Position numbers and translations under genes: made by a program. This document shows positions 11,663 through 64,000 of a stretch of DNA of 64,000 nucleotides, piece by piece (position 1 is the stretch's first letter; every line of letters starts with the position of its first letter). The notes beneath the pieces are model-generated. The model saw only the letters and a list, made by a program, of their open reading frames with translations. It was not told the origin of the DNA and searched no databases. The stretch comes from Trueperaceae bacterium. Lineage in GTDB: Bacteria; Deinococcota; Deinococci; Deinococcales; Trueperaceae. The stretch is taken from NCBI GenBank assembly GCA_965213705.1, contig OZ243913.1, positions 2,784,001-2,848,000 on the forward strand. Reading direction: 5' to 3'.

Positions 11663-12490
11663 ATGAAACTGACTTTATTGGGTACAGGAACGCCTGTTTT
11701 AGAGTCCACGCGGCAAGGCTCGGCGTTTCTCGTGCAAGTCGGAGAACAAAACCTTCTTTTCGATGCCGGGCGAGGCGTCAGTAGCCAACTTCTGCTCATT
11801 GGGCTGGTCCCCGAACACCTCGACTATCTTTTTATCACCCATCACCACGCCGACCACATCGGCGGCCTGGGCGATTTGCTGGTGTCTGCTTGGCACGCCG
11901 GTCGCCGGAAGCCTATCCGAGTTTTCGGGCCGCCTGGTACGAGAGAGATAGTCGATACGCTTTTGAACGTCGTCTACAAGCGTGACATCACCTTTGCCTT
12001 GACAGGTGAGGACAAACCCGACATCAACACGCTCATCGAGGTGCGAGAGGTCACGGCGGGCGCTTCAATTCGAGAAGCGTCCTGGCTCCTCTCGGTCGGG
12101 TCGGTCAAACATGGGAATAGGTTGAGCCAAGCCGAGTTTCCCTGCTTGGGCTACCGGCTCGAGGCCGATGGCAAAGTTATAGCCTTGACCGGCGACTCGG
12201 TTGCAAGTGACGGTTGGTACACCTTGGCACAAGATGCCGACGTGTTGATTCAAAGCTGCTACCTGGCAAAAGCCGAAGTCACAACACCCGAATTCGAATA
12301 CCTCGCCGAACACGTCATCGCGGACTCGTCTCAGGTTGGCAAAATGGCAACCAAGGCCGAGGTGAAAACACTGGTGCTGACGCATTTCAGAAGAAAGTCT
12401 CTGGCTCTGATGCACCTTTTGCAAGACGACGTGCAAAAAGACTTCAGCGGCAAATTTATACTGGGTGAAGACCTTAAAATCCCCGTTTAA
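11663..12490 (+). CDS. MBL-fold metallo-hydrolase (RNase Z/AtsA-like)
   Basis: LTLLGTGTP, LFDAGRG, THHHADHIGG, TGDS, LVLTHF. Confidence 0.88.
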   Translation: MKLTLLGTGTPVLESTRQGSAFLVQVGEQNLLFDAGRGVSSQLLLIGLVPEHLDYLFITHHHADHIGGLGDLLVSAWHAGRRKPIRVFGPPGTREIVDTLLNVVYKRDITFALTGEDKPDINTLIEVREVTAGASIREASWLLSVGSVKHGNRLSQAEFPCLGYRLEADGKVIALTGDSVASDGWYTLAQDADVLIQSCYLAKAEVTTPEFEYLAEHVIADSSQVGKMATKAEVKTLVLTHFRRKSLALMHLLQDDVQKDFSGKFILGEDLKIPV

Positions 12491-12896
12491 GCGGTAAATA
12501 TAAGTTTGTTTCTTGCCACCCGCATCATCGTGGCAACCGCTCTTTATTTGGGCTCGAGCCGTGCGACGTAGAACTGACGGCACAAGCGCTCTAGGTCGCT
12601 GTGTTTCTGGGTTACGAGCGCAAGCATCATCTGTGTACAGGATACTTCACAAACGTGGGGTACGGCAGAAAACCCTTGAAGAGCGAGCTTTTCTTGAGCA
12701 AGTTCTGAAACAAGAAGGTTGGGAATAGAGTAGGCTCGAGGTCGTTTCAACGGTCATAAAAGCTTGAGCGTGGTGGCTCGAGCCTCGTGACCAGAGATGA
12801 CAAGATTCATGCGTTTTCAGGAGTTGAAAGTGTTGGGTAGGCTTATGAAATTCAACAGAATTTTTAGGCTCGTAGAATTTCAAACTTCACAATCAC

Positions 12897-14711
12897 CTAT
12901 TGCCTAACGAGACTTACAAGCCTAGTTACAATTTCTGTCAGTGTCAAATCCGCAGAAACATTATTTGAATCTTGAAGCGAAAGCGATATGGCTCCCAAAA
13001 CGGGTTTGGCAGGTTGATTTGAAAATAGGTCATACTCCTCTGAGTGATAGCGGTTCCAAGAATCACCCGCCCCCCCTGATTGTTTAGGATATAAAAGTAT
13101 TAGAGCTTGGGTAGAAGGGAAACCTCCATTGACCGAACCAAGTCCATGAAGATATTTTAACGCCATTGAAGGTAATTCGTCCCCCCACGAATTTGGGTTT
13201 TTATACTTGGCATCCAGCACGATATACTGGTAGCTGTTAGAACCTCTACATTCCAAGACGAAGTCGGGACGATACGGATATTTTTGGTAAGAGCCATGTT
13301 TCACATCAATCAAACCGTCTACATCGGAGTTTGCACGACTAAGATTTGGCTCGTAATAGAGTGTAGCCCACTGGTTGTTTCGATTGCTAAAAACATATTT
13401 GTCATACGGATTTTCTATAGCCATCAGGCTGGCATTTTCTGAACTGAGATGGGTAGCCTCTTGTTTCTCAAAGCCAGCGCTTGTGACAGCCTCAACAAGT
13501 TTAAATAAGCAGAAAAACTCATAAAGTTTGTCAATCGTCCGTAAGCCCAAAAGGAATCTATCCAAACGCCTGTCCAAACCTCCCAGGGCATACCAAGCTC
13601 TAATACGTTCAAACAAGCTTCGGTAGTGTGGGTAGCTATGAAAACCCGAGGTGAGCTTGGGGGATTCTCGAAGCGGACGATGAACGGGAACTACTTCTTG
13701 CAGTTGATGTTGGCAGTATCTGCACAAGCTTTGTAAGGCTCGACATTGGGTTAGCAAGCGTTCGCAGTAAGCTTGCCCAAACTCCCTCCTGATAATGTTG
13801 AAACTTTGATAACCTATCGGAATATCGGTGGGGGTTTCTAGCTCCCACATAAACTCGAGTTGCTCCTGGTAGTATGCTTCAATTTGTTGAAGCTTGGCAG
13901 CAACGTCAACCAGATAACCATGAATAATTTGATTTTCGTAAACGTCTGTATCTTCTACTAATTCTTCGGTTTCGATGACTTGTGGCGTATAGCGGCGATT
14001 GCCTATAGCAACCGCTCTAGCATTTCCAGGCGAAGGTACAAGCGTGTCTAGGTGATTAGTCAACCAGTGGGTAGCATACTCGCCCACGTACCCCACTTGT
14101 GACCACGAGCGCAAAGAAGGCTGTGGAGTAAGACGACTTCTCTTTTTTTGGCGTAATCTCACCAAAGAGGCTTGCAAAAGGTCGAGTCCATAGCGAGCCT
14201 CTTCCATCAAAACTCGTGCGTGGCGGAAACCGCCTAGTTTTTGGTCAGTACCAGAACCCTGAGTAGTCAGACTAAAGCACGACTTTACAATGTCGTCAAA
14301 ATGCCTCTCGAGGTATTGTAGAAGTAGTTCCACTTGCTCGGCGTTGAATTTTCTTGCGTACACCTCTACAAATGTTTGAAAAGTTCTTGTCTCTCCACTT
14401 TGCTCGTGCAACTCGAGAACAATCCTGCTCGTACCGAAGTGATTTAAAAAGAATGAAGGCTTCTGATGCGGATACCACCGATATTCGGTAAAAACGTCGG
14501 CTGTACGCACCTCACTCGGTTCTATACTGGCGTCGCCAATCCACAGCCGAGGTCGAGACTCGTAACGCATTTTATCTACTAAAACAAATTCCACAGGCTC
14601 AGTTTCTGTAATGCTCACTGAAGCTACGTGTTCATAATCAGCAAATTTTAGAAGCTCTCGTGCGCCACCACGGACTATAAATAGCTGAGGTTGTGCGGCA
14701 GAAAGCGTCAT
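12897..14711 (-). CDS. McrC-like DUF2357 / PD-(D/E)xK nuclease
   Basis: DTDVYENQIIHGYL (DUF2357-like), KLYEFFCL, RPDFVL...LDAKYK; ATGA overlap with the upstream McrB-like gene; AT-rich. Confidence 0.82.
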   Translation of the reverse strand: MTLSAAQPQLFIVRGGARELLKFADYEHVASVSITETEPVEFVLVDKMRYESRPRLWIGDASIEPSEVRTADVFTEYRWYPHQKPSFFLNHFGTSRIVLELHEQSGETRTFQTFVEVYARKFNAEQVELLLQYLERHFDDIVKSCFSLTTQGSGTDQKLGGFRHARVLMEEARYGLDLLQASLVRLRQKKRSRLTPQPSLRSWSQVGYVGEYATHWLTNHLDTLVPSPGNARAVAIGNRRYTPQVIETEELVEDTDVYENQIIHGYLVDVAAKLQQIEAYYQEQLEFMWELETPTDIPIGYQSFNIIRREFGQAYCERLLTQCRALQSLCRYCQHQLQEVVPVHRPLRESPKLTSGFHSYPHYRSLFERIRAWYALGGLDRRLDRFLLGLRTIDKLYEFFCLFKLVEAVTSAGFEKQEATHLSSENASLMAIENPYDKYVFSNRNNQWATLYYEPNLSRANSDVDGLIDVKHGSYQKYPYRPDFVLECRGSNSYQYIVLDAKYKNPNSWGDELPSMALKYLHGLGSVNGGFPSTQALILLYPKQSGGAGDSWNRYHSEEYDLFSNQPAKPVLGAISLSLQDSNNVSADLTLTEIVTRLVSLVRQ

Positions 14712-16745
14712 ACGAAAAAGCGATAAAAGCCATGTTCATTTTCGCCAACCTCGAGGATGCTCGCTAGCACCTGCTTACTGTGATCAAGCTGATCAATAGT
14801 TGTAACTAGGTCGTTTAATCGTGCTCTATAGGTGTCGCCATAACCGTTAATCAATGGAAGGACATGCTGCGCTACTGCGTAATCAAGCGCACTAAGTTCA
14901 TAGTGTTCGCGCATGAGCGGTCTAGCCACGCTACAAAATCGCTTGATAGTTTGCTGCTTGCGAGGGCTTATTATGATAGGCAAGCCTTTACTCGAGTCAG
15001 GCTCGTGTAGCGCTTTGATAATTTTATCAAGCAAGTCAAGCTCATCGGCTTCTAACTCCTGTCCACGTTCATTATTGAATAACCTGCACGTATCTTTTTC
15101 AGTGAGCAAACTCTTTTGTTCACTCGTCACCTCTTCTTCAATGAACTGAAAACTTTGACTTTGGGGTGGGTTGATTCTGATGACAGGTACACGGTCAAGC
15201 ATACGAGGAGATAGAGGCTCAGTTGTAGAGTCATAATTTACGGTTCCGAGAAACCGCATCGAGCGAGGTACTTCCAACTTTGCCTTCGCTCCTTTGTCGC
15301 CAGTGAGCAGTTCACGGCCTACATAATCATCGCACATGCGCAGGAAAGTGCTGAAGTAATGTTCTAAAGGACTTAGGTTGGCCTCGTCAAGGAGCACCCA
15401 AGATGGAAACGCTTTGGCTTCATCATCCTGAACGGCACTTAAAAGCTCGAAAAGTCCCGTGGCCGATGGTTGAAAGTTGCCACTCAACGGGTTGTAGAAA
15501 CCGATAAGGTCACGAGGAGAGGTCCAGCCGCGTGCTGTAGCGATAGTAAGAAAACGGTCAGCGTGCTCGAGTCCTAAAACGCGCGCTAGATAAGTTACTA
15601 AAGAGGTTTTACCGACTCCAGGTAAGCCCGCGAAAATGGTAAAAAAACTTTGCTGTATTGACACCAGATAATTTGCGAGTTCATGAGTAGCTATTTCTCT
15701 TCCAGCGTCACGTAATTTTCCTTGAACTTCTTGGATTAACTCTTGCGCTGTCGCTGGTTTATCATCACGTTCGCTCGGAATAGCGGAAACCATTACAGAC
15801 TCTGCTCGTGAAGGTATGACGCCATTGAGCATATCAACAAACGGCTTAAAGTCACTCAATTTTTCTCGTAGCTTCTCGCGGTTATCTTGTATATGACGCC
15901 TTAATTGCTCACTTGCCTGTTCTAAGTCCTCTTTCTCCTTCTCTAGTGTTTCTACAGCATTTTTACAATCATTGATATTGTTTTCCAAAGTGCGCTTTTG
16001 GAATTTCAGTACCTCGATTGAATTGCCAACTCCAAGTTTCTCAACCAGTAGAGTAAGTTCGGCCTCTTTACTTTCTATATCTCTATTCAGAATTTCCAAC
16101 TCTTTAGTAGAGGCCGCTAGGTTTTCCTCCTGCTTTTGCTTTTGGGATTTTTCTATTTGTTTAGAGAGTTTTTTCTCCTCCTCACGCAAAGCTTCGATTT
16201 TTTCTTGCTTCCCCTGAATCTCTTTTTCAATCTCGCCATATTGACTTTCAAATTGCTTCTGATACTTCGCCTTTGCTTGCTCGAGATAGGAGTCCCTATT
16301 GATTTCGAGAAAGTTGTCAATCTGTTTTACGCCCTGTTCTGACTTCAAGTAGTCGTTGATTAAACTGGAGCGCTGAGTGTTCCAGGTTTGTGTCCTATCA
16401 ATCAACTTCATTAAACGCTCTTTGCGTTCAGAAAAGTAGGGGGCATCTTTTATCAGAGAACTTATCTCTTGTCGAAATGAGCGCAAATCAGACTTGTTCA
16501 ATTTAATAGAGGATGTATCTGCTAACAAGGAATTACCCCACTTGACAAGTTCTTCGTCAGATATAAAATCTATATGGTCTAGTTCTGCCTTTCCCAAATC
16601 GTAAGCAGTAGCAGTTAAAACTAGATCTTGTGTATTGTTGTATTTGTCCTTCAACTCTGTGATCTCAAAATCGTCGTCAGTAAAGGTAAAAACGCAGTTT
16701 TCAGGCAGATTTTTTATGTTATACGGAGGTTTGAGTTCAACGCTA

Positions 16746-17524
16746 GGTAGTGGTTTAGCAAAGACTGATAAGCTAAGGAATGGTCACCAAAGTTGTACGT
16801 TGCTGCCACTGCGAGAGCGAAGAGCTTGTCAAGAACGGTCATGCACCAAACGGCAAGCAAAAGTACCTGTGTCGAGCGTGCGGCAAGTCCAGTCGCGAGA
16901 ACGCGAGCACTAAAGGGTACAGCGAAGCGAAGAAAGATGAGATACTGAAGTCGTATCAGGAGCGCTCTAGTATGCGTGGGCTGACCAGAACATTCGGCGT
17001 GTCCCGCACCACAATAGCGAAATGGCTCAAAAAAAGCCGCGACGACACCGCCGCTTAGCGCCACACTGGTTACGCCCGAGAACCCTGAAGCGGTGCAACT
17101 CGAACTCGACGAGATGTGGTCATTTGTTCGATGTAGACGTAACAAACGGTGGGCCTGGATAGCGCTTTGTAAGCAGACACGCCAGGTGGTCGCTTGTGTT
17201 GTAGGTGGACGTGGCATTGCTACTTGTCAAAAACTTTGGCGTAACATCCCAGATGCTTATAAACAAGGCACGGTGTTTAGTGACTTCTGGGAAGCTTATC
17301 AGGCCGTCGTTCCCGATGAACAGCATCAAGCTGTTGGTAAAGACTCAGGGCTTACAGCACACGTCGAGCGCTTTAACAATACTATCCGCCAACGCCTAGC
17401 GCGCTTTGTCAGAAAGACCTTATCCTTCTCCAAGTCCGAACACATGCACCTCATTTGCTTGCATCTGTTCTTGGTCCGCTACAATCTTGAGCGTGCTGCT
17501 GTCAGTTGATGGTGGGCCACTACC
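16746..17524 (+). mobile_element. IS1-family insertion sequence, 779 bp
   Basis: Imperfect 23-bp TIRs GGTAGTGG..ACTGA at both ends; 8-bp target duplication CAACGCTA (16738-16745 and 17525-17532); insA/insB ORFs. Confidence 0.95.
16780..17509 (+). CDS. IS1-family transposase InsAB (predicted -1 frameshift at A7G, 17029-17036)
   Basis: InsA: CCHC..KNGH..GKQKYLCRAC zinc finger plus HTH; InsB: ELDEMWSFV, SDFWEAY, HVERFNNTIRQRLARFVRKTLSFSKS. Confidence 0.93.
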
Positions 17525-18125
17525 CAACGCTAAACAAACCTTCATTAGGTTGGGGTTTAACTGTGTAGGCAAAAGGACCATAAAGCCCCTTAGAACTTGA
17601 GTCTCGCAAAACGATGAGTCGTGAGGGTTTGAAGCGTAAGTTCTCGATAGTTCGCTGCGAAGGGTCAAAAGCGGCTTCCAGGACGTGAAAATACTCAGTC
17701 CTTTCAACAGGAGTTATGTCTTTATCTCTTGCGATGAATTTGGCCTTTGAAGGATTATACGGTTCGAACTGATCATTCTCGCTGTAAGAGACGCGAAACA
17801 AATCTATTTCAGAGTATCCAGATTCTATTGCCTCATAGTTGTAGGTAACAAAAATGGCGTTATCGTTTGGAAACTCGTTAGACATTACAGGTCTTGCGCC
17901 CGCGTCATTTTCGATCAACAGAGGGCGGACCAAACCAGATGTTTGTGACAATGTTTGCTCGAGTTTTGCAGCTACTACTTCCACGCATCCTCCAAAACTG
18001 CTTCTGTATTTTATTCAGTTAAGATTACCATTAGAGTCTGATGTGAGCAAACGAATCTGTTTCGAGAAGTTTTAGAAAGTTGACGGTTGACTCAAACCCT
18101 TGTCTTCTGTACACTCTCCCAAGAC

Positions 18126-19797
<1,672 letters not shown>

Positions 19798-19860
19798 GGG
19801 AGTTTTTCGTTTTTAGACCAATGACGAAATACGAAGAACGAACGACTTTTTAGGAGCGAA

Positions 19861-21147
19861 ATGCGAATAAAAATTAGTAACGCCCACCTCATCGACGCCG
19901 GCAAAGATTACGGCGTCGGCGACCTCTATTTGAACGATGGAATCATCGAAGGCATGAATTTGGGCGGCGAGACCGACGAGAGTTTCGACGCGCGCGGCAA
20001 CGTGGTCACGCCCGCCTTTATTGACCTGCACACGCACCTGCGCGAGCCGGGGGGTGAGACCAAAGAGGACTTGCGCAGCGGTCTCGCCGCCGCCGCCGCG
20101 GGTGGCTTCGGGACGGTCGTGAGCATGGCGAACACAACCCCGACGGTGGACGAGCCCGGTTTGGTTGCGGGCTTGATAGCCAAAGCGGAGCGCATCGGGC
20201 AAGCGCGGTTGCGGCCGGCGGCGGCGCTCAGCCACGGCCTCGGCGGCAAAACGCTGACCGACTTCGCCGCCTTGCAAGCGGCGGGCGCGGTGATGATCAC
20301 CGACGACGGGATTCCCGTGGCGGACGCGCACCTTATGCGGCGGGCTTGCGAGTACGCCGCAGAATTGGGCCTTGTGGTTCAAACACATTCAGAGGAGCCG
20401 AGTTTGCGGCAAGACGGCGTGATGAACGAAGGGCGCGTGTCACAGCGCCTCGGCTTGCCCGGCAACCCGGCGAGCGCCGAAGCGGTAATGATTTTCCGCG
20501 ACTACGAACTCGCACTGATGACGGGGGCGAGGGTCCATATCGCGCACGTGTCGTCCAAACGTGGGGCGCAGGTTGTTGAGTGGTTCAAGGAGCAGGGCGC
20601 GCCCGTCACCGCCGAGGTGACGCCGCATCACCTGACACTCACGGACGAAGCCCTCGAGACCTTCGACCCGGTCTATAAAGTCGCTCCGCCGTTGCGGACA
20701 CAAAAAGACGTCAACTACTTGCGGGACGCCCTAAAGCGCGGCGTGTTCGACAGCGTCGGCACCGACCACGCGCCGCACACCCGCGCCGAGAAAGAGCGCG
20801 ACCTGCTCACTGCGCCTTTCGGCATCGCCAACATCGAGGTGACGTTTCCGCTGCTTTATACCGAGTTGGTGAAGACGGGCGGCCTCGAGCTGCAAGCTCT
20901 CCTTCGCCTCTTGCAAACCGGCCCCGCACGAGTGATGGGTTGGGACGCGCCGAGGTTGAAACCGGGTAGCCCGGCCGACCTGGTGGTGCTCGAGCTGAAC
21001 ACGGCTCACGAAGTTGCGCCCAAGCTCTTCAAAACCAAGGCCAAGTTCAGTCCCTGGACGGGGCGCAGCTTGTGGGGCTGGCCCGTGGCGACGTGGGTTG
21101 GCGGCGACCGTGTTTACACGCGGGCGGGCGCGCTTGCCTCTATCTGA
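19861..21147 (+). CDS. pyrC: Dihydroorotase
   Basis: DLHTHLREPG, AAAAGGF, HIAHVS, EVTPHHL, KVAPPLR, TDHAPH. Confidence 0.95.
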   Translation: MRIKISNAHLIDAGKDYGVGDLYLNDGIIEGMNLGGETDESFDARGNVVTPAFIDLHTHLREPGGETKEDLRSGLAAAAAGGFGTVVSMANTTPTVDEPGLVAGLIAKAERIGQARLRPAAALSHGLGGKTLTDFAALQAAGAVMITDDGIPVADAHLMRRACEYAAELGLVVQTHSEEPSLRQDGVMNEGRVSQRLGLPGNPASAEAVMIFRDYELALMTGARVHIAHVSSKRGAQVVEWFKEQGAPVTAEVTPHHLTLTDEALETFDPVYKVAPPLRTQKDVNYLRDALKRGVFDSVGTDHAPHTRAEKERDLLTAPFGIANIEVTFPLLYTELVKTGGLELQALLRLLQTGPARVMGWDAPRLKPGSPADLVVLELNTAHEVAPKLFKTKAKFSPWTGRSLWGWPVATWVGGDRVYTRAGALASI

Positions 21148-21218
21148 ACGCCCAACGCAGTCCCGGAACGGTGATAGATGCGACAGACACCATCAAAAGA
21201 CTTGAGTACACTAGACTC

Positions 21219-21884
21219 ATGATGAATCCTGCTCTCACCCCCAGGCAGCCTCAGCATCCTCTACCGCCGCTGACGGCAGCGCGCGACTATCCGCGCCGCT
21301 TGCTCGGCAAGGGTGACATCCTCTACCGCGACGGCGACACGGCCGACACCGTGTTTCGCGTGGAAGAGGGGCTGCTCAAACTCAGCATCGACCTCGTCAC
21401 CGGCAAGGAGCGTATCACCGGCGTGGCAGGTCCCGGCGACTTTATCGGCGCGATTACCCCGTCGCACTTTTCTCAGCAGGAAACGGCCCAAGCGCTGAGC
21501 CCTCAGGTCGTCGTGCAGGTGATTCCGAGCAGCGATGTCGGCGAAGACTTGAAAGACGAAGTGTACGCCGCCGCTGGGGTCCAACTCGCGCGTATGCGGC
21601 AAACCCTGGAAGACAGCGAGTTGCCCGTACCCGCCCGTCTGGCCCGAACTTTCGTGCGCTTGGGCGAACGCTTCGGCAACGTCTCGGACACGCACAACGT
21701 TCACCTCGCGCTGCCCCTGACCCACGACAACTTCGCCGCGATGGTCGGTGCCGCCCGCGAAACGACGACCGCCGTGTTGGGCGAGATGCGCAACGGCGGG
21801 CTGGTCGAAGGTACCCGCGGGCGCTACCGGTTCAACCTTGACACCTTGAGCGACTACGCGGTCGAGGCGTCGTTCGCTTACTAG
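21219..21884 (+). CDS. Crp/Fnr-family transcriptional regulator
   Basis: Cyclic-nucleotide-binding-like N-domain (KGDILYRDGD..GLLKL) and HTH LTHDNFAAMVGAARETTT; TACACT 6 nt before ATG. Confidence 0.88.
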   Translation: MMNPALTPRQPQHPLPPLTAARDYPRRLLGKGDILYRDGDTADTVFRVEEGLLKLSIDLVTGKERITGVAGPGDFIGAITPSHFSQQETAQALSPQVVVQVIPSSDVGEDLKDEVYAAAGVQLARMRQTLEDSELPVPARLARTFVRLGERFGNVSDTHNVHLALPLTHDNFAAMVGAARETTTAVLGEMRNGGLVEGTRGRYRFNLDTLSDYAVEASFAY

Positions 21885-21908: not shown

Positions 21909-21939
21909 CGCGGGAAGCTCACGAGCTTCCCGCCTTTTT
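21909..21939 (+). terminator. Rho-independent terminator
   Basis: GCGGGAAGCTC-AC-GAGCTTCCCGC followed by a T run. Confidence 0.8.
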
Positions 21940-22206: not shown

Positions 22207-24600
22207 CTATTCTTCGACGATGTTTGCGGTGCCCGGCGCAAACAGCACCCAAGTTTTGAAGGGTGCCAGGTCGACCGGGTCGCCCAAGCTGGTCACGAAA
22301 CTCACGCCGCCGTCAGGGTCCCAGCGACCGGGGATGGCGCGGCCGCGTAGGTACAGGGTCGCTCTGCCGCCGCGCAACGGGATGTACAAACGGCCTTCGG
22401 GGTCGTCGGGAATGGGTCGCACGTCTATGTCCGCGACCAGCACCGCGTCGACGAAGACGGCTTCGCCGGAGGCGTCGGCGGCGTCCCGGCCGTTGCGCAC
22501 CCACCGGTAGAGGTTGAGGTCTTGAACGTAGCGAAACGCCGAGTCGTAAGTTGCCGAGTAACCTACCTGGACATAGTTTGTCGCCGTCGCCGTGTCCTCG
22601 GGCCGAAAGCGGGTGCCGCTCACGACTTGGTCACGCTCGAGCCTGAGCCGGTTCACGGCCTGGCGCAGCGAGGAACCGCTCGAGTACAGGTTGTAAGGCG
22701 CGTTGCGCCCGCCTAAGCGCTCGAACAAATTGCCGCTCGTGTAGGCGTTCAGCGTAGGTACCGGGCTCCGCGAAATCGCCGCCAGCGCGGCGGGCGAGCC
22801 GCCGTCGTGGACCAAAATTCCGTCTATGCTCTGCGCGAGCGCGTGAAAGTAGTCGCGCGCGCTGCGAACCGGCCCGACCTGCGCCGGGTCGACGCGGTCG
22901 TAAACGGTCATGAGTCGGGTCAGACCGCCCTCGACGGGCATCTCTACAATCGTCGAGGCTTCCGTTAAGCCCGCTTGCGGGTAACCGCCTACGTTGTCGA
23001 GCATCACGGCGAGCGGGCGGTCGCGGTTCTCGCGGTAAGGTTCTCGCGCTAGGGGAGCGCCGGTCGCTTCTGCTGCGCCCGTCGGCCCCGCAGCCGCGCC
23101 CAGGTTGGCCGGGCTCGCGTTGTCTTGGGCCGTCGTCTGACCGGAACGTTCAGCGTTGCCGCCGGGGTCGCGGTCCGTGCGCTGTCCGGGTGAGGCGGTG
23201 TCCCCAGGCGGCAGGTCCGCGAGGGTCTCTACCGGAAACGGGGTCTCACCCGGTTCAGAGGCGGGCGCCGTGACAGTAGCAGGCGCGGTAGCGGCCACCG
23301 TCGTAGCTACCGTCACCGCCGGGCGCGGCACGGCTTGGGGTGGCGTCACGCTTGTCAAAATTTGGGGTTGCGGGACGGCTTGCGCCGGGGCCACACTCAC
23401 CGCCGTTTGCGGCCGGGGCACGGGTTGCGACGCGGCGACGGCGGCCCGCACCTGCGGCTGTGGAACGGCTTGGGCGGCGCTCACCGCCACTTGCGGCGTG
23501 ACCGCGACCGGGCGCTGCGCTGCGACGGCCGCTCCGGCCGCAGGCGTCGGAATCGTTTGCGACGGCGCGACCGAGGCCTGCGCTTGCGGTCGCGGGACGG
23601 TCTGCGCCGGCGTTACTTGCGCCGCCACCTGGGGTCGGGGGGTGGCTCGAGCCGCGGCCACAGCTGCCGAAGTCTCGGGCCGGGGCACGGCTTGAGCGGG
23701 CGCGACCGCCGCCGACGCTTGGGGTCGCGGGACGGTTTGAGCCGCGGCGACGTTCGCCGACGCTTGCGGCTGCGGGACAGCTTGCTCCGCGGCGACCGCC
23801 GCGCTCGGGGTGGGTTGCGGGATGGCCCGTTCGGGCGCGACCTGCACGCTCGGCGTTGTCGCTACCGACTGCGCCGGGACGACCGCCGCCTCGGGTGCAG
23901 GCCTGGGGATGGGCAGGGCTTGGGCGAGCGGCTGCGGCGTCAGCTCGACCTGGTCGATGTCGGGCAGGGTCGTCGCGGTGGCCTCGGCGAGGGGCAAGTC
24001 GGTCTCGAGCGGGACAGCGGGCGTTTGCACCGCAGGCGTCGGCACGGTAGGTGTCGATACGGTGGGTGTCGACACGGTGGGAGTTGGCACTGTAAGGGTC
24101 GGCGCCGGTTCGGCCTCGGTGGGGGACGGGGGTGCGACTTCGGCCGGCGGCGGCTCTGCAACAGGTTCGGCCACGGGTTCCGCGACAGGCGCTTCGGCAG
24201 CCTCCGCGGGCGGTTGGGCCACCGGTTGGGCCACCGGTTCGACCCTCGCTTCGGCAGGCGGCCCTGCAGGAACGGGCTCTACAGGGACGGGCTCTGCAAC
24301 GGTTTCCGGCGGCGCGGACTCGGCAAGGGTGGGGGCGGGCGGCGTCGCGGCGACCGGCGTACCCGCTTCGGGCGCGGCGACGAGCGGCTCGGCGGCTTGC
24401 GGCGCCGGAGCGTCGGCGCTGGGCGCGTCGGTGGGGATTTCTGACAATTCCGGCGTGCCCACGTCGATGACGAGGTAGGTGTCGAGCGCCACGGGTTGCG
24501 GCCGCGTCCACAGCCAAAACAGCAGAAGCAGGGCGAGCAGGTGTAAAAACAGCGACAACAGCAGGGCGCGGCGGCGGTCTTTGTCTTGAACCAGGGTCAT
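22207..24600 (-). CDS. TonB/TolA-like membrane-anchored protein with Pro/Ala repeat stalk and C-terminal DUF3048-like domain
   Basis: N-terminal TM RRRALLLSLFLHLLALLLL (SxxxH); ~500 aa P/A-rich linker; C-domain RPLAVMLDN..PQAGL..VEGGLTRL..GPVRSAR..HDGGS..APYNLY. Confidence 0.8.
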   Translation of the reverse strand: MTLVQDKDRRRALLLSLFLHLLALLLLFWLWTRPQPVALDTYLVIDVGTPELSEIPTDAPSADAPAPQAAEPLVAAPEAGTPVAATPPAPTLAESAPPETVAEPVPVEPVPAGPPAEARVEPVAQPVAQPPAEAAEAPVAEPVAEPVAEPPPAEVAPPSPTEAEPAPTLTVPTPTVSTPTVSTPTVPTPAVQTPAVPLETDLPLAEATATTLPDIDQVELTPQPLAQALPIPRPAPEAAVVPAQSVATTPSVQVAPERAIPQPTPSAAVAAEQAVPQPQASANVAAAQTVPRPQASAAVAPAQAVPRPETSAAVAAARATPRPQVAAQVTPAQTVPRPQAQASVAPSQTIPTPAAGAAVAAQRPVAVTPQVAVSAAQAVPQPQVRAAVAASQPVPRPQTAVSVAPAQAVPQPQILTSVTPPQAVPRPAVTVATTVAATAPATVTAPASEPGETPFPVETLADLPPGDTASPGQRTDRDPGGNAERSGQTTAQDNASPANLGAAAGPTGAAEATGAPLAREPYRENRDRPLAVMLDNVGGYPQAGLTEASTIVEMPVEGGLTRLMTVYDRVDPAQVGPVRSARDYFHALAQSIDGILVHDGGSPAALAAISRSPVPTLNAYTSGNLFERLGGRNAPYNLYSSGSSLRQAVNRLRLERDQVVSGTRFRPEDTATATNYVQVGYSATYDSAFRYVQDLNLYRWVRNGRDAADASGEAVFVDAVLVADIDVRPIPDDPEGRLYIPLRGGRATLYLRGRAIPGRWDPDGGVSFVTSLGDPVDLAPFKTWVLFAPGTANIVEE

Positions 24601-24618
24601 GCGAAAAAAGTCATCCGC

Positions 24619-25032
24619 TCAGCTACCCCCGGTGGCAATCGCGATGCGCTGCGCCCCGGCTTGCTTCATCAGGTCCATTACCCGCACGACCAGGCCGTGG
24701 GGCACCGTCCTGTCGGCGCGGAGCGCGGCGGCGCTCAGGCCGGTCGTGTCGAAAGCCGTTCGCAAGGTGGCGACCAAGTCGGCTTCACTCACCGCCACAC
24801 CTGCGACAAATATTTCGTCCTCACGATTGATGGTCACGGTCGGTAAGTCAGAAATCGCGGTCTGCGGCGACTGGGCCTGCGGCAGGTCGACGGGTAAACC
24901 CGACTCCAGGGTGATGAACGTCGTCGAGACCATAAAGAAAATAACGAGCAAAAAGACCACGTCCACCATCGGCGTGAGGTCCAGACTGAGACCTTGGCGG
25001 GCGAATCTTCGCGAGCGGTAACCGTTTCTCAT
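24619..25032 (-). CDS. exbD: Biopolymer transporter ExbD/TolR family
   Basis: LDLTPMVDVVFLLVIFFMV TM with conserved Asp; LRADRTVPHGLVVRVMD; ATG at 25032. Confidence 0.92.
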   Translation of the reverse strand: MRNGYRSRRFARQGLSLDLTPMVDVVFLLVIFFMVSTTFITLESGLPVDLPQAQSPQTAISDLPTVTINREDEIFVAGVAVSEADLVATLRTAFDTTGLSAAALRADRTVPHGLVVRVMDLMKQAGAQRIAIATGGS

Positions 25033-25042
25033 AACGACCGGC

Positions 25043-25711
25043 CTACAGGTTCGGCGCGGCTTCGTAAGCGCGCGGCGCGGTGATGTCGACTTTGTCCTCG
25101 CGCCGCGCGGCGACGACCTGGGCGACGTTGCCCATGAGTTCTTCGCGGCGGCGGTCGATTTCCAACAAAATCGCGTCGACTTTGCTCGAGAGGTAGTTCT
25201 GCCCGATGAGCGTCGGAATCGCCACGACGAGCCCGGCGGCGGTGGTGACCAGGGCTTGGCCGATGCCGTCGGCGAGTGCCGCGGGGTTGCCGGTGCCCTG
25301 CTGGCTGATTTCACTAAACGCGATAATCATGCCCGTGACGGTGCCGAGCAAACCCAACAGCGGCGCGATTTGTGCGATGGTCGCCAGCGGCCTTAAGCCC
25401 CGCGACAGCCGCTGCTCTTCCAACAGCGACGCCTCTTGAAAGGCCGCGTCGACGGCGGAACGTCCGTAGGGTAGGCGCAGCAGCGCGGCCTTGAGCACCC
25501 TCGAGACCGGCCCGCCGTGCGCGTCGCAAGCGCCCAGCGCGCTCTCCAAGTCGCGGTCGCGCACCGCCGCGTTGACCTCCACCATCAGCGCGTCCGCTTC
25601 GACGGGCTCGCGCGACAGCTTAAAAAGTCGGGCAAAAAACAAGTAAACTGCGTAGACGGAAACCAAAATGATGGCGACCAAAACCGGTCCACCACTTGTC
25701 AATAGCTGCAT
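25043..25711 (-). CDS. exbB: MotA/TolQ/ExbB proton channel family protein
   Basis: IAPLLGLLGTVTGMIIAF and GIGQALVTTAAGLVVAIP. Confidence 0.92.
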   Translation of the reverse strand: MQLLTSGGPVLVAIILVSVYAVYLFFARLFKLSREPVEADALMVEVNAAVRDRDLESALGACDAHGGPVSRVLKAALLRLPYGRSAVDAAFQEASLLEEQRLSRGLRPLATIAQIAPLLGLLGTVTGMIIAFSEISQQGTGNPAALADGIGQALVTTAAGLVVAIPTLIGQNYLSSKVDAILLEIDRRREELMGNVAQVVAARREDKVDITAPRAYEAAPNL

Positions 25712-26053: not shown

Positions 26054-28792
26054 ATGGATGATAAGTCAACCCAGGCTGCGGAAGCCCCTGTCCCAGCCGC
26101 CGACCAAGCCCCGAACGCGCCCTTAGACCAGGCCCCGAACGCGTCAGCCGAGCTGGGTGCAGATGACGCGACGGTAGCAGCGACGTCCCCCGAGCTTACC
26201 GCTACTTCCGACATGCCTACCGGCGACGAAGCGGACAGCGACGCAAACAGCCAGCCGACCCGCACCGACCTGAGCGGCGAAACGAGCCCCGAAGCTCCGA
26301 CACCGGACGCAGCCACAGCGGACACGGCTACAGCGGACAGGACCACACCGAACCAGGAAAGCGGCAGACCGGGTTTGGGCGCGGTTGCAGCCGTGGGTGC
26401 CGCCCTGGGTGCCGCTGCCCTGGGTGCCGCCGCGTTCAACGCGGTCAGACACCGCAACGACGATAACCGTGCCGAGGGTGACGACAGGGGTAGCGCCGCT
26501 GCCGAACCCGCTGAAAACGATTCGCACAACCAGGCCGAGGCTTTCGACACTGCTCGAGCGGACACCCAAGAAGAGGCCGAAACGCAAAACGCCGCGCCGC
26601 AGAACGAACCTTTAGAAACCAGGGTTGCGGAAACTGCCGTGATGAGCGCGCCCGCAATGGAAGCCCCCACAGTAGAAACGCCCACAGTGGAAACGTCCAT
26701 TACGGAAAGCAATGCGGCGGAAGTGTCAGGGCCGGAGGCTTCACCGCTGGAGACGTCGTCTAGTGTGGCGTCCAACGTGGCAGCAGACGACACCTCGGCG
26801 ATGGAAACCATGACGATGGAAGACGTGTTGGCCGCCAGCGACGAGCAGTTGGCGAAGCCGCCCGTCCACCGCGGCATGATTCTCACCGGCAGCGTCATCA
26901 TGTTGGCGCAAGACGGCATCATCGTCGACGTGGGCGCGAAAATCGAAGGGTTGTTGCCTTACAACCAACTGTTCGAGTTCGACACCAACGCCAAGGACGC
27001 CGCCAAATACTTTAAGTCCGGCGACGAGATTCAGGTTTACATCGTCCGTTCGGACATCCCGAACAACACGATTATCCTGTCCAAAAAGCGGGCCGACCAA
27101 GAACGCGCCTGGAACTTGTTGCAAGACATCCACGAGAAAAACCTGCCCGTCGAGGTCGAAATCGTCGACAAAGTTCGTGGCGGGCTCGTCGCCAACTTAG
27201 GCGTGCGGGCCTTTTTGCCGGCCAGCCAAGTCGATATTCGCCGCGTCAACGACCTCGCGCCGTATGTGGGCCAGCGCCTCAAGGTCAAAATCATCGAGCT
27301 CAACCGCAAGCGCAACCGCGTCATCGTGTCGCGCCGCGCGATTCTCGAGGAAGAGGTCGCGGGTCTTAAAGAAGAGACGCTTGCCAAGCTCGAGCCGGGT
27401 TTGCAAATCGAGGGCGAAGTTGTCGAAATCACCGACTTCGGCGTGTTCGTCAACTTGGGCGGCGTCGACGGACTGGTTCACCGCAGCGAACTGTCCCACG
27501 GCCGCTTCAACCACCCGCGCGAAGTCGTCAAGTTAGGTGACAAGCTCAAGGTCGAAGTCTTAGACATGGACTTAGAGCGCGAGCGCATCAACTTGTCCGC
27601 CAAAAAGCTCGCGCCCGACCCCTGGGAAAACGCGCTGCTCAACTACTCCATCGGCCAGCGGGTCGAGGGCAAGGTGACCAACCTGACGCCCTTCGGCGCG
27701 TTCGTCGAAATCGAGCCCGGTCTGGAAGGCCTCATCCACGTCTCCGAAATGAGCTGGACCAAGCGCATCCGCCACCCCAAGGAAGTGCTGACCGAGGGCG
27801 ACGACGTCGAGACGATGGTGCTCAAAATCGACACCGAGCAACAGCGCATCTCGCTCGGCTTGCGCCAGACCCAACCCGACCCCTGGAGCAGCTTGCCCGA
27901 CCGCTACCCGCCCGGCACCGAGGTCACCGGCCCGATTACCGGCATCACCGACTTCGGCGTGTTTATGGAAATCGAAGAGGGCATCGAGGGCCTGGTTCAC
28001 ATCAGCGAACTAGCCCACGAACACATCGAGACCATCGAGGAACACTTCAACAAAGGTGACGAAGTTACCGCCGTCATCCTCAACATCGACCCGGTCGAGC
28101 AGCGCGCCTCGTTGTCCCGCAAACGCCTGTTGCCATTCACCGCCGGCGAAGGCGACGCCGACATGACGCTGGGTGCGCCCGCCAGCCGTGGCGGAGGTCG
28201 CAAAGGTCGCCGCGGTGGCCGCCGTAGCCAAGTCATCGACTATGACTACAGCTACGCCGCCAGCGACACGAGCACCAAAGCGACAACCAAACTCGGGGAC
28301 GTTTACGCAGACTTATTCGCCCAGTTCGGGCTGACCGAAACTAAAAAAGACGCGGACAGCGACGAAACCGTCCAAGCCGACGCAGGCACCCGCGCGGCCA
28401 GCGAGCCTTCTTCCGCCGCAGGTGACTTGGGCCCCGACGCCGCACAGGGTGGGGCCGGTCAAGCCGAGTCCGAGCAACAAACGACTCGGACGGTTGAAAA
28501 GAACGAGCAGAAAGACGAGCCGCAACAGACCCAGGCGACCGAGCCCGAAGTCGACCCGGAAAACGCCATCGACGCCGCCGAAGCCGCCGCACTCCTCACC
28601 GCAGCTTTTCGTGAGGGCAAGCGCCCGGCCCCCGCGACGGAGGCCAACACCGCCGACCAAAGTAACAACCAAGGCGGTAATGTGGACGAGAAAGAAGACG
28701 ACGTAGTCGCCGCAGAAACCGTCCAGGAGAACGCTTCAGCGACGGCCACCAACGAAGAAGCCGCCGAAGAAGCTGAAAAAACAGAAGCGTAA
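26054..28792 (+). CDS. rpsA: 30S ribosomal protein S1 with long acidic N- and C-terminal extensions
   Basis: Five S1 domains ([39 protein letters not shown] etc.) and [14 protein letters not shown] tail motif. Confidence 0.92.
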
Positions 28793-30192: not shown

Positions 30193-30912
30193 ATGGACTC
30201 TAAAGAAATCTTTACCTGGCTTTATGTCGCGGGAATGGCGGCGGGTGTCCTGTTGTTTTGGGCTTGGAGCCGCAACCCGCGCGGCGTGCCGCAGTACGAG
30301 TACCTCATCGCCATGTTTATTCCCGTCTGGTCGGGTCTGGCGTACACCGCGATGGCGCTGGGTCAAGGGCAAGTAGAGATTGCGGGCCAAACGACCTACT
30401 TCGCGCGTTACATCGACTGGGTCGTGACGACGCCGCTTCTGCTGCTCGCCCTCGGCCTGACCGCGATGTTTTACGTCCCTAAAGACAAGCGGCAGGTTTC
30501 GCTGTTGGCGGGGTTGCTGGGTGCAGACGTCGTCATGATTCTTTGCGGTTTGGTCGCGGACCTCTCAGGTCGGCCCGAAGTGCGCCTCACCTGGTACGCG
30601 CTCGGCTGCGTGGCGCTCGTCGTCGTGCTGTGGGGCATCTGGGGGCCGCTACGAAACATCGCCGCCGCCCACGGCGAACGCTTGGCGAAGATTTACAACC
30701 GGCTCGCCCTCTACCTCACCGTGCTGTGGTTCGGTTACCCGACGGTGTGGCTGTTGGGGCCTTCGGGTTTGGGCGTTTTCGACCAGACGACGGACACGCT
30801 GCTGTTCGTCGTGCTGCCGTTCTTTTCCAAGGTCGTCTTCAGCATCATCGACCTGTCGTCCTTGCGAGGCCTCGAGAAAACAGCGGAACACCGGGCGATG
30901 GCGCATCCTTGA
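30193..30912 (+). CDS. Microbial rhodopsin, xenorhodopsin / Anabaena sensory rhodopsin-like clade
   Basis: 7 TM; RYIDWVVTTPLLLLA (D75-T79-A86); GYPTVW; LPFFSK213 with Pro at the BR D212 position; D220 and E36 on the cytoplasmic side; TAAGGAG RBS. Confidence 0.95.
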   Translation: MDSKEIFTWLYVAGMAAGVLLFWAWSRNPRGVPQYEYLIAMFIPVWSGLAYTAMALGQGQVEIAGQTTYFARYIDWVVTTPLLLLALGLTAMFYVPKDKRQVSLLAGLLGADVVMILCGLVADLSGRPEVRLTWYALGCVALVVVLWGIWGPLRNIAAAHGERLAKIYNRLALYLTVLWFGYPTVWLLGPSGLGVFDQTTDTLLFVVLPFFSKVVFSIIDLSSLRGLEKTAEHRAMAHP

Positions 30913-61565: not shown

Positions 61566-62306
61566 ATGCTCATCTACGGAAAAAACGCAGTCATCGAAGC
61601 CCTACAAGAGGGCCAAGCCGTGCGAATTATGCTGGCGCAGGGCTTGCAAACCGGAACGGTCAAGGAGTTGGAGAAGCTGGCTCGAGCGCACGACGTTTCG
61701 GTCGAGCACGTCCCGCGCATCCAGCTCGACCAGAGCCTCAAGACGACGAACCACCAGGGCGTCGTCGCCGAACTCCCCGACCTGGAGTTCGCCGACCCCG
61801 AAGCGCCGTTTCAACTTGCCGAGAAGCGGGGCGAGCGGTTGCTCCTCGTCCTGCTCGACCAAATGAACGACCCGCGCAACTACGGCGCGATTATCCGCAG
61901 CGCCGAGGTGCTCGGCGCACACGGCGTGGTGACCGAGGAGCGCCGCAGCGCGCCGCTCTCAGCCGTCGCGGTCAAGGCGGCGGCCGGGGCGACGAGCTAC
62001 CTGCCGCTCGTCCAGGTAAAAAACTTGCCCCGCTACATCGACGGCTTGAAAAAGCGCAACGTGTGGGTTTACGGCGCGGCGGGCGAGGGGAAAAGCACGC
62101 CTACTCAAGTCGACTGGGACCGCGACGTGGCCCTCGTCATCGGCTCGGAGGGTACGGGGATGCGCCGACTGGTGGGTGAAAAGTGCGACGAGTGGGTGCG
62201 GATTCCCACGCGCGGCAACATCAATGCGCTCAACGCCTCGGTGGCGGCGGGCATCCTGATGTACAGCATCGTCTCGAGCCGGGAGCGGGCGCATGGCAAA
62301 GCTTAA
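61566..62306 (+). CDS. rlmB: 23S rRNA Gm2251 methyltransferase (SPOUT)
   Basis: IYGKNAVIEAL, HQGV, DPRNYGAIIRSA, GSEG.G, LNASVAAG. Confidence 0.93.
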   Translation: MLIYGKNAVIEALQEGQAVRIMLAQGLQTGTVKELEKLARAHDVSVEHVPRIQLDQSLKTTNHQGVVAELPDLEFADPEAPFQLAEKRGERLLLVLLDQMNDPRNYGAIIRSAEVLGAHGVVTEERRSAPLSAVAVKAAAGATSYLPLVQVKNLPRYIDGLKKRNVWVYGAAGEGKSTPTQVDWDRDVALVIGSEGTGMRRLVGEKCDEWVRIPTRGNINALNASVAAGILMYSIVSSRERAHGKA

Positions 62307-64000
62307 ACCCAAACACCTCTTCGAACTGGTCTTCGTCGCCGACCCGGCTTTGAGCCCGGACGGGACACGCGCCGCCGCCGTTCACACGAAAATCGTCCAG
62401 CCCGACGAGGACGAGCCACCGCGCTACCGGAGCAACATCTACCTGTACGATTTAGAAACCGGCCAAGAAACGCAGTTCACCCGCTCGGAGTTTTTGGACA
62501 CCCACCCGCGCTTCAGCCCCGACGGTGAACGCTTGGCGTTTTTGTCCAAGCGGGAGGAAGAGGGCAAGGCGCAGCTTTACGTCATGAACATCGCGGGCGG
62601 CGAGCCCGAACAGCTTACCCAGCTCGAGTCCGGCGTGAGCAGTTTTGCGTGGCACCCGAAGGGCTCGAGTCTCGCCTTCGTGTCTCGAGGTGACTGGGTT
62701 GACACGGTCGCCAAGAATAAGACCGCCCGCACGATTGACCGTTTGCACTACAAGATGAACGGCGTCGGCTTCCGCCCGACCGAGCCCGCGCAAGTTTACT
62801 TGTACAACCTCAAAAAAGGCGAGACCGACAAGCTGACCTCGCTGCGGAGCGACCCGAGCGGCCTCGCCTTCAGCCGCGACGGTAAAACGCTTTACTTCGC
62901 CGCCTCGGCGTCGGTAGAGGACGGTGACGAGTGGCGCAGCGACCTCTACGCGCTGACCCTGAAAAGCGGCAAGCTCAAAAAACTGTTGCCCGCCCCCGGC
63001 AACATTGCCGCGCCGAGCCCGAGCCCGGACGGGCGTCACGTCGCCTTTTTCGCGCCGACCGATTGGGACGTGTTCGCCAGCGCCAACGTAGCGTGGCTCG
63101 TGGACGCCAAAGGCGGCGAGCCCGAACGCTTGGGCGACATGGAAACGCCGCCCAGCGTCGGCGGGGACAGCCGTTACGGAAGCTATCCGAACACCGTAAA
63201 GTGGCTCGAGCCTACCCAACTCCTCCTCAATGTCAACCGCGCGGGCCGGAGTGGACTCGCCAGCCTCGACTTGAAAACCCGCGACCTCACGCCGCTGGTT
63301 GAGGGCGACCGGGCCGTAACGAGTTTTGACGCGGCGAACGGGACGATTTTGTTCACCGCCGAAACGCCGCAACAGCCCGGCGAGCTGTTCGTGTGGCGAG
63401 ACGGTGAAAAACGCAAATTGAGCGCGGCAAACAACGCCTTTATGAAGCGCTTCAAACTCGCCACAGCGGGCGAGCCCGTACTGCTCGAGACCTCCGTCGA
63501 TACAAGCTTGAGTTACTGGACGCTCTCCCCTACCAAACCTCGCAAGGACGGCGCAACAGTGCTGCAAGTCCACGGCGGGCCGCACACGAACTACGGCTAC
63601 GGGTTTTACTTAGAGTTTCAAATCCTCGCCGCGGCGGGCTACCGGGTCATCTACGGCAACCCTCGAGGCAGTTCAGGTTACGGCAGCGACTACGCCACGA
63701 CGCTGCTGACGCGCTACGGCACCGTCGACGCCGACGACGTGCTAGCTATGGCACGCCACGCGACGGCCGACCGCCCCGACGCCCCGGTTCACCTGACCGG
63801 CGGCAGCTACGGCGGCTTTATGACGAACTGGCTCGTCGCGCACACGGATATGTTTCGCTCAGCGGTGACGCAGCGAAGCATCTCGAACTGGCTGTCGTTT
63901 TACGGCACCGCCGACATCGGCTACCGCTTCACCGAAATCGAGCAGGGCGGCAACCCCTGGGAGGACACCACGGCACTGTGGGAACAGAGCCCCATCAAGT
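62293..64000 (+). CDS. S9-family (acylaminoacyl) peptidase; runs off window end
   Basis: Manual translation: MAKLKPKHLFELVFVADPALSPDG, PD40-like repeats (FSPDG), VHGGPH, NPRGSSGYG, GGSYGGFMTNW nucleophile elbow. Confidence 0.93.
   Translation, partial: MAKLKPKHLFELVFVADPALSPDGTRAAAVHTKIVQPDEDEPPRYRSNIYLYDLETGQETQFTRSEFLDTHPRFSPDGERLAFLSKREEEGKAQLYVMNIAGGEPEQLTQLESGVSSFAWHPKGSSLAFVSRGDWVDTVAKNKTARTIDRLHYKMNGVGFRPTEPAQVYLYNLKKGETDKLTSLRSDPSGLAFSRDGKTLYFAASASVEDGDEWRSDLYALTLKSGKLKKLLPAPGNIAAPSPSPDGRHVAFFAPTDWDVFASANVAWLVDAKGGEPERLGDMETPPSVGGDSRYGSYPNTVKWLEPTQLLLNVNRAGRSGLASLDLKTRDLTPLVEGDRAVTSFDAANGTILFTAETPQQPGELFVWRDGEKRKLSAANNAFMKRFKLATAGEPVLLETSVDTSLSYWTLSPTKPRKDGATVLQVHGGPHTNYGYGFYLEFQILAAAGYRVIYGNPRGSSGYGSDYATTLLTRYGTVDADDVLAMARHATADRPDAPVHLTGGSYGGFMTNWLVAHTDMFRSAVTQRSISNWLSFYGTADIGYRFTEIEQGGNPWEDTTALWEQSPIK

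Follow-up and report, generated by a model that had tools for sequence, protein, structure and literature searches.

The exbB and exbD genes of a Trueperaceae bacterium (Deinococcota; assembly GCA_965213705.1) are followed by a gene for a protein of 797 amino acids (aa) which is very likely an energised force transducer, built like TonB or TolA but ending in a DUF3048 domain. The three genes lie on the minus strand of the 64,000-nucleotide (nt) stretch analysed here (the window; contig OZ243913.1, positions 2,784,001 to 2,848,000): exbB at 25043–25711, exbD at 24619–25032 and the 797-aa open reading frame (ORF) at 22207–24600. The gaps of 10 nt (25033–25042) and 18 nt (24601–24618) between them agree with those of a preliminary description of this DNA. 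Taken as a whole, the system is probably a transducer of the proton motive force, of a non-canonical type and with a swappable tip, engaged in a Tol-like upkeep of wall/outer-membrane attachment. For its role, envelope upkeep is slightly favoured over uptake or motility, and a wall polymer or an OmpM/SlpA tether is proposed tentatively as the target of the tip.

ExbB/ExbD-type motors convert proton flow to force through a Ser/His helix that sits on ExbB and a strand that is held by ExbD. The 222-aa product of exbB matched PF01618 (MotA_ExbB, E 3.5e-31) and that of exbD (137 aa from its ATG) matched PF02472 (E 5e-29), an adjacent pair as in the 5:2 proton motors. When mapped to E. coli ExbB, the pore residues Thr124, Thr157, Pro117 and Pro166 and Ser18 of the first transmembrane helix (TM1) were all retained. 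The membrane Asp24 of ExbD together with ExbB Thr124/Thr157 was present in 55 of 55 aligned pairs, and the TM1 Ser was kept in 52 of the 55 ExbB orthologues (Thr in two, a gap in one). The source genome, a single contig of 4.25 Mb estimated at 98% completeness, contained one ExbB, one ExbD and one DUF3048 protein, all at this locus. Since anchor profiles detected no second protein with an anchor plus a motor box among its 17,326 ORFs, the 797-aa protein was the only visible client of the motor.

The 797-aa protein started with a single transmembrane helix (aa 12–31; 24508–24567, minus strand as for all its parts) containing Ser16 (24553–24555) and His20 (24541–24543). This confirmed the Ser-x3-His helix noticed earlier, and the residue numbering is the same as that of E. 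coli TonB. Of the longer Ser-x3-His(-x6-Leu-x3-Ser) pattern (SHLS), Leu27 was present and position 31 was Trp, not Ser; the Leu/Ser half of the motif is the less conserved one (PMC12215075). A beta-strand at aa 41–49 (24454–24480) resembled the motor box or D-box: its core began 23 residues past His20 and fitted five of seven D-box positions on comparison by eye, and the D-box of E. coli begins 25 residues after the His (PMC10907165). An N-terminal helix was found in 108 of 121 Trueperaceae-type proteins, 93 of which had a motor-box-like strand. In the 99 that could be aligned on a basic-Ala motif, His was conserved in 97 and Ser in 93 (Thr in four). Mean identity was 54% for the anchor and box, 62% for the tip region and 37–44% for the stalk.

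The stalk (aa 32–520) was 489 aa long and contained 116 Ala and 99 Pro, in accordance with the Pro/Ala stalk of about 500 aa described before; it was not uniform, however. The part at aa 32–226 had a Pro fraction of 0.25 and a net charge of -26, most of it being the acidic Pro/Ala-rich proximal stalk (aa 50–226, 23923–24453). About 14 tandem 15-residue repeats followed (aa 227–436, 23293–23922), with a lag-15 self-identity of 0.46 (1000 shuffles reached 0.26 at most) and a consensus of roughly Q-A-V-P-x-P-Q-V/A-x-A-S-V-A-x-A (unit profile from 436 units). A Gly/Ala/Thr linker of partly conserved consensus (aa 437–520, 23041–23292) led to the tip. The peak lag was 15 in 85 of the 121 homologues and 29 or 30 in 21 more, and the repeats probably stiffen the stalk. 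Neither these repeats nor the beta-strand box featured in the preliminary description. The whole ORF had a third-codon-position GC content of 0.78, and its protein had 296 homologues of 438–1395 aa at E ≤ 0.001.

The tip consisted of a DUF3048 N-terminal domain (PF11258, aa 524–652, 22645–23031; E 1.1e-34, 120.2 bits) and a DUF3048_C domain (PF17479, aa 677–785, 22246–22572; E 4.7e-10, 40.3 bits), both above the Pfam cut-off of 25. Neither Pfam nor NCBIfam gave a TonB_C or TolA match for the protein at E ≤ 0.1. The tip had been called DUF3048-like from five short motifs; all five were present in the translation, and the domain searches bore the assignment out. It matched Bacillus subtilis YerB (PDB 2PSB, E 2e-25), the only significant match in PDB sequence searches. 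At the sequence level it was wholly covered by the two DUF3048 domains, with no vWA domain, and an atlas search with DUF3048 clusters excluded gave no usable match.

Nine polar residues (N536, E553, E557, R562, R579, S580, R582, H598 and N637) formed an invariant cluster in motor-coupled and free forms of the domain. In a sample of 120 Trueperaceae-type, 67 Atribacterota-type and 118 free proteins, 16 were at least 75% conserved, namely these nine and Q542, T561, Y584, S602, R628, D733 and R737. In its free form, YerB is a lipoprotein or a surface protein with a membrane anchor, also in single-membrane bacteria; YerB is listed as a lipoprotein of unknown function (PMC12055916, PMC13068155), and yerB appears in sporulation gene lists (PMC3416734, PMC4433262). 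The ‘yerB (COG1470)’ of PMC10849945 seems to be another usage of the name and was not used. The neighbours of free yerB in 12 of 23 gut-type loci had no shared theme by eye.

The conserved polar residues, the ability of free YerB to work without a motor and the sporulation lists would all suit a tip that is an enzyme (a wall hydrolase, transferase or modifier), the motor setting the place and time of its action and pulling nothing. We regard this as unlikely: at three positions conserved in the other groups, Trueperaceae-type tips carry a different residue (His636Tyr, Arg540Tyr and Arg700Trp), and DUF3048 also occurs as an appendage of proteins with trypsin, RCC1, ankyrin or PEGA-type domains, which fits a binding module. 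These appended forms are secreted proteins ending in a Trueperaceae-type DUF3048 behind a trypsin-like protease, RCC1 repeats, ankyrin repeats or PEGA-like domains (L060:2986-4794 (-), P0133, P0141, P0161 and P0232), and they nest inside the motor-coupled clade. Other lineages have DUF3048 fused to PF00144 peptidases (P0356, P0369) or to a dockerin (P0155).

Conservation was followed in 201 Deinococcota genomes of five families, f1 (Trueperaceae) to f5, of which f2 and f4 appear to be Deinococcaceae and Thermaceae, respectively; a protein grouping with f3 carries the name Oceanithermus. All 40 f1 and all nine f3 genomes had DUF3048, and it was found in none of the 92 f2, 57 f4 and two f5 genomes. 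Both exbB and exbD were directly upstream in 33 of 37 DUF3048 loci, a sample in which two genomes had been fetched twice and from which L041 (a partial match) and two contig-edge matches were left out. The remaining four comprised one with exbD at a contig end, two without upstream DNA, and L060, a second DUF3048 copy fused to a trypsin domain. Together with the exbD found in 15 of 17 Atribacterota-type loci (see below), these counts indicated that the exbB-exbD-DUF3048 order seen in the window is conserved.

ExbB was present in 67 of 68 f2 and 12 of 42 f4 genomes. Twenty loci were fetched around ExbB, and in 18 of them, from f2 and f4, exbB-exbD was followed by a His-bearing helix and a long stalk (one of the other two was cut by a contig end and one was from f1; in four f2/f4 loci the stalk frame was broken or contained runs of N). 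Position -4 from the His was Thr in ten, Ser in four and Ala in four, and most had a box-like strand. These proteins ended in a 115-aa tip that showed no relationship to DUF3048 (hhalign probability 0.2%). It had no match in a Pfam version that did not contain PF29205 and no PDB sequence match, a homologue search gave nothing at E ≤ 0.001, and it resembled PF29205 by predicted structure (TM-score 0.71). It occurred in 89 of 92 f2, 11 of 57 f4 and none of the 51 f1, f3 and f5 genomes, and no genome of the 201 had both tips, an exclusivity that amounts to one swap among kin, not an independent statistic. When an anchor profile was made from f2 and f4 proteins alone, the window protein ranked first in the source genome (E 0.0045). 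Because of this ranking, and because the two tips are unrelated and mutually exclusive, the anchor appears by sequence to be the constant part of the Deinococcota transducers and the tip the swappable one. Keeping motor and anchor while varying the tip is the pattern expected if the tip sets function, as it does in TonB/TolA chimeras (PMC12204202). That an unrelated domain can stand in for DUF3048 also speaks against an enzymatic tip.

Two further observations were made in the f2 and f4 loci. A gene for a secreted protein of ~235 aa without a Pfam match stood directly after the alternative-tip stalk gene (L071:4983-5705 (+), with equivalents in L070–L088); it is a candidate target of the alternative tip and was absent from the source genome. 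In the f4 loci L087 and L088, ExbB was shortened to ~120–130 aa, with its three membrane helices kept and most of the cytoplasmic part missing.

The motor-coupled form was not confined to Deinococcota. A homologue search at 50% representatives gave 5340 matches, and among the best 150 of these a second lineage of DUF3048 proteins with a TonB-like start was found, one cluster of which bears the names Thermatribacter velox and Atrimonas thermophila. The match covered the full length in 17 of 40 metagenome loci: exbD was directly upstream in 15 of these, where exbB was also reached in 12, and two had no upstream DNA. Motor genes were found in none of the 23 loci matching the domain only (free YerB), many of which were short. 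Among 73 long homologues, 59 had Ser-x3-Asn, six Ser-x3-His and eight neither; of the 113 short YerB-like proteins that began with a hydrophobic stretch, two had Ser-x3-Asn/His, both of them cut-off Atribacterota-type sequences. His20 of E. coli TonB is fully replaceable by Asn (bioRxiv 10.1101/2022.09.26.509584); thus, the natural Asn of Atribacterota is a change tolerated by the known mechanism. The earlier proposal of a machine for the Deinococcota envelope has to be widened in this respect, since Atribacterota share exbB-exbD-DUF3048, and narrowed in another, since most Deinococcota (f2 and f4) use the other tip. Its Ser-x3-His holds for Trueperaceae-type proteins, with Ser-x3-Asn in Atribacterota and neither form in f3.

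In a quick motor tree, which carried a long-branch warning and left out L066 and L067, f1, f3 and Atribacterota fell on one side of a branch with SH-aLRT 99. The DUF3048 trees had two motor-coupled clusters, and a single clade was not rejected (p-AU 0.0875). In six DUF3048 proteins (P0180, P0336, P0243 and P0273–P0275), which grouped with the Atribacterota proteins, Ser-x3-His and a motor box were joined to a stalk rich in Lys and Glu.

A gene for a 1207–1215-aa protein was located upstream in four of the seven Atribacterota loci listed in full, and the product was TPR-rich in the two that were scanned. Such an addition might suggest that the motor drives motility or secretion, in the manner of AglRQS or SiiAB, and uses DUF3048 as an adaptor; 5:2 motors do serve such systems (PMC12204202). 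No motility, adhesin or secretion gene was conserved beside the Trueperaceae operon, though, and its single-copy, universal presence in f1 and f3 (49 of 49 genomes) fits a housekeeping role; we consider such a motor very improbable.

The partners of classical Ton and Tol systems were sought in the source genome. Family searches detected no TonB-dependent barrel, plug, TonB_C, OmpA/Pal or TolB_N. Because these searches had missed BamA, the negatives were rechecked locally: queries from E. coli and from relatives detected no TonB_C, TolA_C or Pal, and five receptor queries plus a profile detected no TonB-dependent receptor. BamA was found at G000:C1:3587266-3589890, with three POTRA domains (tblastn E 6e-89). 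The genome had two TolB propeller matches, both of which we take, from their motifs, to be S9-type peptidases. The one in the window (62293–64000 (+)) was a propeller-plus-hydrolase peptidase whose TolB-like match spanned the propeller only, and the previous statement that the window has no tolB stands.

A secretin and a 943-aa OmpM/SlpA-type protein with an SLH domain plus a barrel were also encoded; the presence of these two and of BamA indicated that the cell has two membranes. Loss of the outer membrane in lineages with the DUF3048 tip, an idea prompted by a blank Omp85 search, was rejected on the presence of BamA; Omp85 was found in 37 of 40 f1 and 9 of 9 f3 genomes. OmpM/SlpA ties the outer membrane of this lineage to the wall via a pyruvylated wall polymer (bioRxiv 10.1101/2021.05.31.446380).

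With a secretin and an OmpM-type protein at hand, a motor annotated as ExbB/ExbD and a Pro-rich stalk like that of TonB, the system might instead carry out a Ton-like uptake without classical receptors, the tip opening or gating an OmpM/SlpA porin, a secretin or another barrel. An Atribacterota orthologue in fact gave a weak, co-linear alignment with the N-terminal 100 positions of the TonB profile (E 0.035). Nevertheless, uptake of this kind seems improbable: TonB-dependent receptor barrels were found in one of the 201 Deinococcota genomes (negatives across these genomes rest on the family search that missed the source-genome BamA) and none in the source genome, no transporter gene was conserved beside the operon, and bacteria that have no outer membrane also possess free DUF3048. 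In the sole receptor-bearing assembly (G014), the barrels were on contigs of 4–6 kb (C15 and C13; L139 and L140), possibly by mis-binning or recent transfer.

Several results weigh against an energised transducer of the TonB/TolA kind. The f3 loci kept the operon and the tip but had no Ser-x3-His/Asn (four of four), and the motor was dispensable in f4, as the ExbB counts show. In a cryo-electron microscopy structure from E. coli, Trp38 of ExbB is in contact with Ser16/His20 (PMC12215075); the equivalent position was Val22 in the source genome and Trp in none of the 55 aligned orthologues, and Glu176 was Gln in 29 of them. The fourth SHLS position was not conserved among homologues. An anchor family profile ranked E. 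coli TolA above all other source-genome ORFs at a weak E of 0.19–0.26 and left E. coli TonB undetected, and the N-terminal 60 aa matched no TonB/TolA chain in a PDB sequence search. The 489-aa stalk exceeds the longest TolA domain II (335 aa, PMC12204202). When the Trueperaceae loci were clustered, no candidate target gene was kept on the same strand beside the operon.

The loss of Ser/His in f3, the Trp38 position that is never kept and the degenerate SHLS could be taken to mean that the stalk protein has become a static spacer or tether, derived from a transducer and still in its operon but no longer driven by the motor. This appears distinctly improbable given that the proton-path residues were invariant in all 55 motors, that the motor had no other client in the genome and that the anchor and box were about as conserved as the tip region, well above the stalk. 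In f3 itself, the proteins were without 15-residue repeats and retained a motor-box-like strand, and the TM1 Ser of ExbB was changed to Thr in four of four loci; its change together with that of the anchor, although a single event, fits a co-changed interface.

As an energised transducer, the product of the third gene would be the only force transducer of a proton-driven 5:2 motor, TonB/TolA-like with another business end. Protons would pass via ExbD Asp24 and the ExbB Thr ring, residues which are kept and whose activity is presumed from the family. Ser16 and His20 would dock the stalk protein on TM1 of ExbB, and the periplasmic dimer of ExbD would capture the strand at aa 41–49, as the E. coli structures suggest. 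The stalk would take the tip away from the membrane, where DUF3048 may grip or process an envelope target through its conserved Arg/Glu/Asn/His site, so that the motor could pull, release or reposition it. The likeliest target would be a wall polymer or, on the OmpM/SlpA outer-membrane tether, the end that binds the wall; the occurrence of free YerB in single-membrane cells makes a wall polymer more likely than an outer-membrane protein.

A wider proposal, speculative and on present evidence rather unlikely, is that proton-driven envelope machines include a third class, found in Deinococcota and Atribacterota, both of which are without Pal. This would be the counterpart of Tol-Pal for OmpM-tethered envelopes, with one motor, a very long stalk and a swapped tip (DUF3048 in Trueperaceae, f3 and Atribacterota; PF29205-like in f2 and f4). 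By pulling on a wall polymer or on the OmpM/SlpA tether, it would remodel the attachment of the outer membrane in growth and division. In its boldest form, the 15-residue Pro-flanked beta-strand repeats would be serial ExbD-binding sites by which the motor reels the stalk in like a rack.

A scan for promoters and terminators gave no promoter and four terminators against 5.8 expected, not above chance. Among the clustered Trueperaceae loci, a metallophosphoesterase gene faced the operon in 19 and a LysM-M23 peptidase gene did so in 17; neither was seen there in the source genome. Divergent from the operon was a gene for ribosomal protein S1 (26054–28792 (+); Pfam S1 repeats), whose 912-aa product had long acidic Ala/Thr-rich extensions at both ends (~270 aa at the N-terminus). 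Convergent with the operon, a Crp/Fnr regulator gene (Pfam) was found within 18251–21884 (+), the other genes of which are presumably pyrR-pyrB-pyrC-like. A hairpin at 21910–21933 with T-runs on both sides may end transcription both ways, the terminator scan being as stated not above chance. A low-GC island at 12000–18000 (0.45–0.47 vs ~0.62) contained a gene for a coiled-coil AAA-type ATPase (14708–16654), separated by two ORFs (16780–17509) from its likely upstream part (17520–17984); we take the ATPase to be McrB-like and the two ORFs to be IS1-like. A 239-aa microbial rhodopsin-like protein was encoded at 30193–30912 (+), with Pro-Phe-Phe-Ser-Lys in helix G, presumably typical of xenorhodopsins.

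Among the papers searched, which included few subscription titles and none of the supplements at Zenodo or bioRxiv, none was found to describe an exbB-exbD-DUF3048 system. Protein records of the same architecture exist for Truepera radiovictrix (ADI15490.1), Atrimonas thermophila and Thermatribacter velox. If correct, our reading would explain the task of ExbB/ExbD, near-universal in a phylum with almost no TonB-dependent receptors and no Pal, and would give a physical context and a first testable role to DUF3048/YerB, a widespread orphan family with a solved structure and no function. It would also bring two Terrabacterial phyla, in which the tip has been swapped and His changed to Asn in nature, under the alternative-force-transducer idea of 2025. 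The system could be tested in cultured organisms, and its sister system in the genetically tractable Deinococcus.

Like the Ton system, the locus has the same motor families, proton-path residues, Ser16/His20 and a Pro-rich spacer (PMC12215075, PMC10907165), with a beta-strand ~23–25 residues past the His (PMC10907165). Unlike it, the locus has no TonB_C tip and no TonB-dependent receptors, ExbB Trp38 is not kept, and the stalk is far longer and contains 15-residue repeats. With Tol-Pal it shares the motor-motor-transducer gene order, a single copy, a likely envelope role and an anchor closest to that of TolA (basic residues, Ala, then Ser-x3-His), but it has no TolA C-domain, TolB, Pal or CpoB-type operon partner, its stalk is non-helical, and its lineage tethers the outer membrane with OmpM/SlpA (bioRxiv 10.1101/2021.05.31.446380). 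The YerB/DUF3048 lipoproteins (B. subtilis YerB, 2PSB) have the whole two-part domain and the invariant polar cluster; the free forms differ in being ~350 aa long, with a lipid or helix anchor, a short linker, no Ser-x3-His/Asn and no motor genes. In Deinococcus radiodurans, DR_0456 is described as ExbB/TolQ-like and DR_0458 is an uncharacterised membrane protein; the protein products of both have been found, and their levels increase jointly under microgravity (PMC8779699). Judging from the locus numbering, DR_0458 may be the stalk gene. This region, presumably of the f2/f4 type, would differ from the one in the window by its unrelated 115-aa tip and the ~235-aa secreted protein downstream.

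The closest precedents are the motor-driven force transducers with a vWA tip, whose authors expected more kinds of transducer (Williams-Jones et al. 2025, Mol Biol Evol, PMC12204202); the text of that paper from abstract to methods and one supplement make no mention of DUF3048, YerB, Deinococcus, Truepera or Thermus. These transducers also have a Ser-x3-His helix, a motor box (here a motor-box-like strand), a Pro-rich or disordered linker and a tip other than TonB_C. Their genes, of unknown function, likewise lie beside a tolQ/tolR-like pair, with an upstream TPR gene in some lineages, as here in Atribacterota. They differ in the tip itself (vWA vs DUF3048), in having a pair of exbD genes where one is found here, and in a linker of ~100 aa against a stalk of ~490 aa (170–616 in homologues). 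They are found in Proteobacteria, the Planctomycetes–Verrucomicrobia–Chlamydiae (PVC) group and Bacteroidetes, whereas the DUF3048-tipped ones are in Deinococcota and Atribacterota. Thus, as far as sequence can tell, the locus belongs to neither the Ton, the Tol-Pal nor the vWA systems, and by its anatomy it would work like a TonB/TolA transducer.

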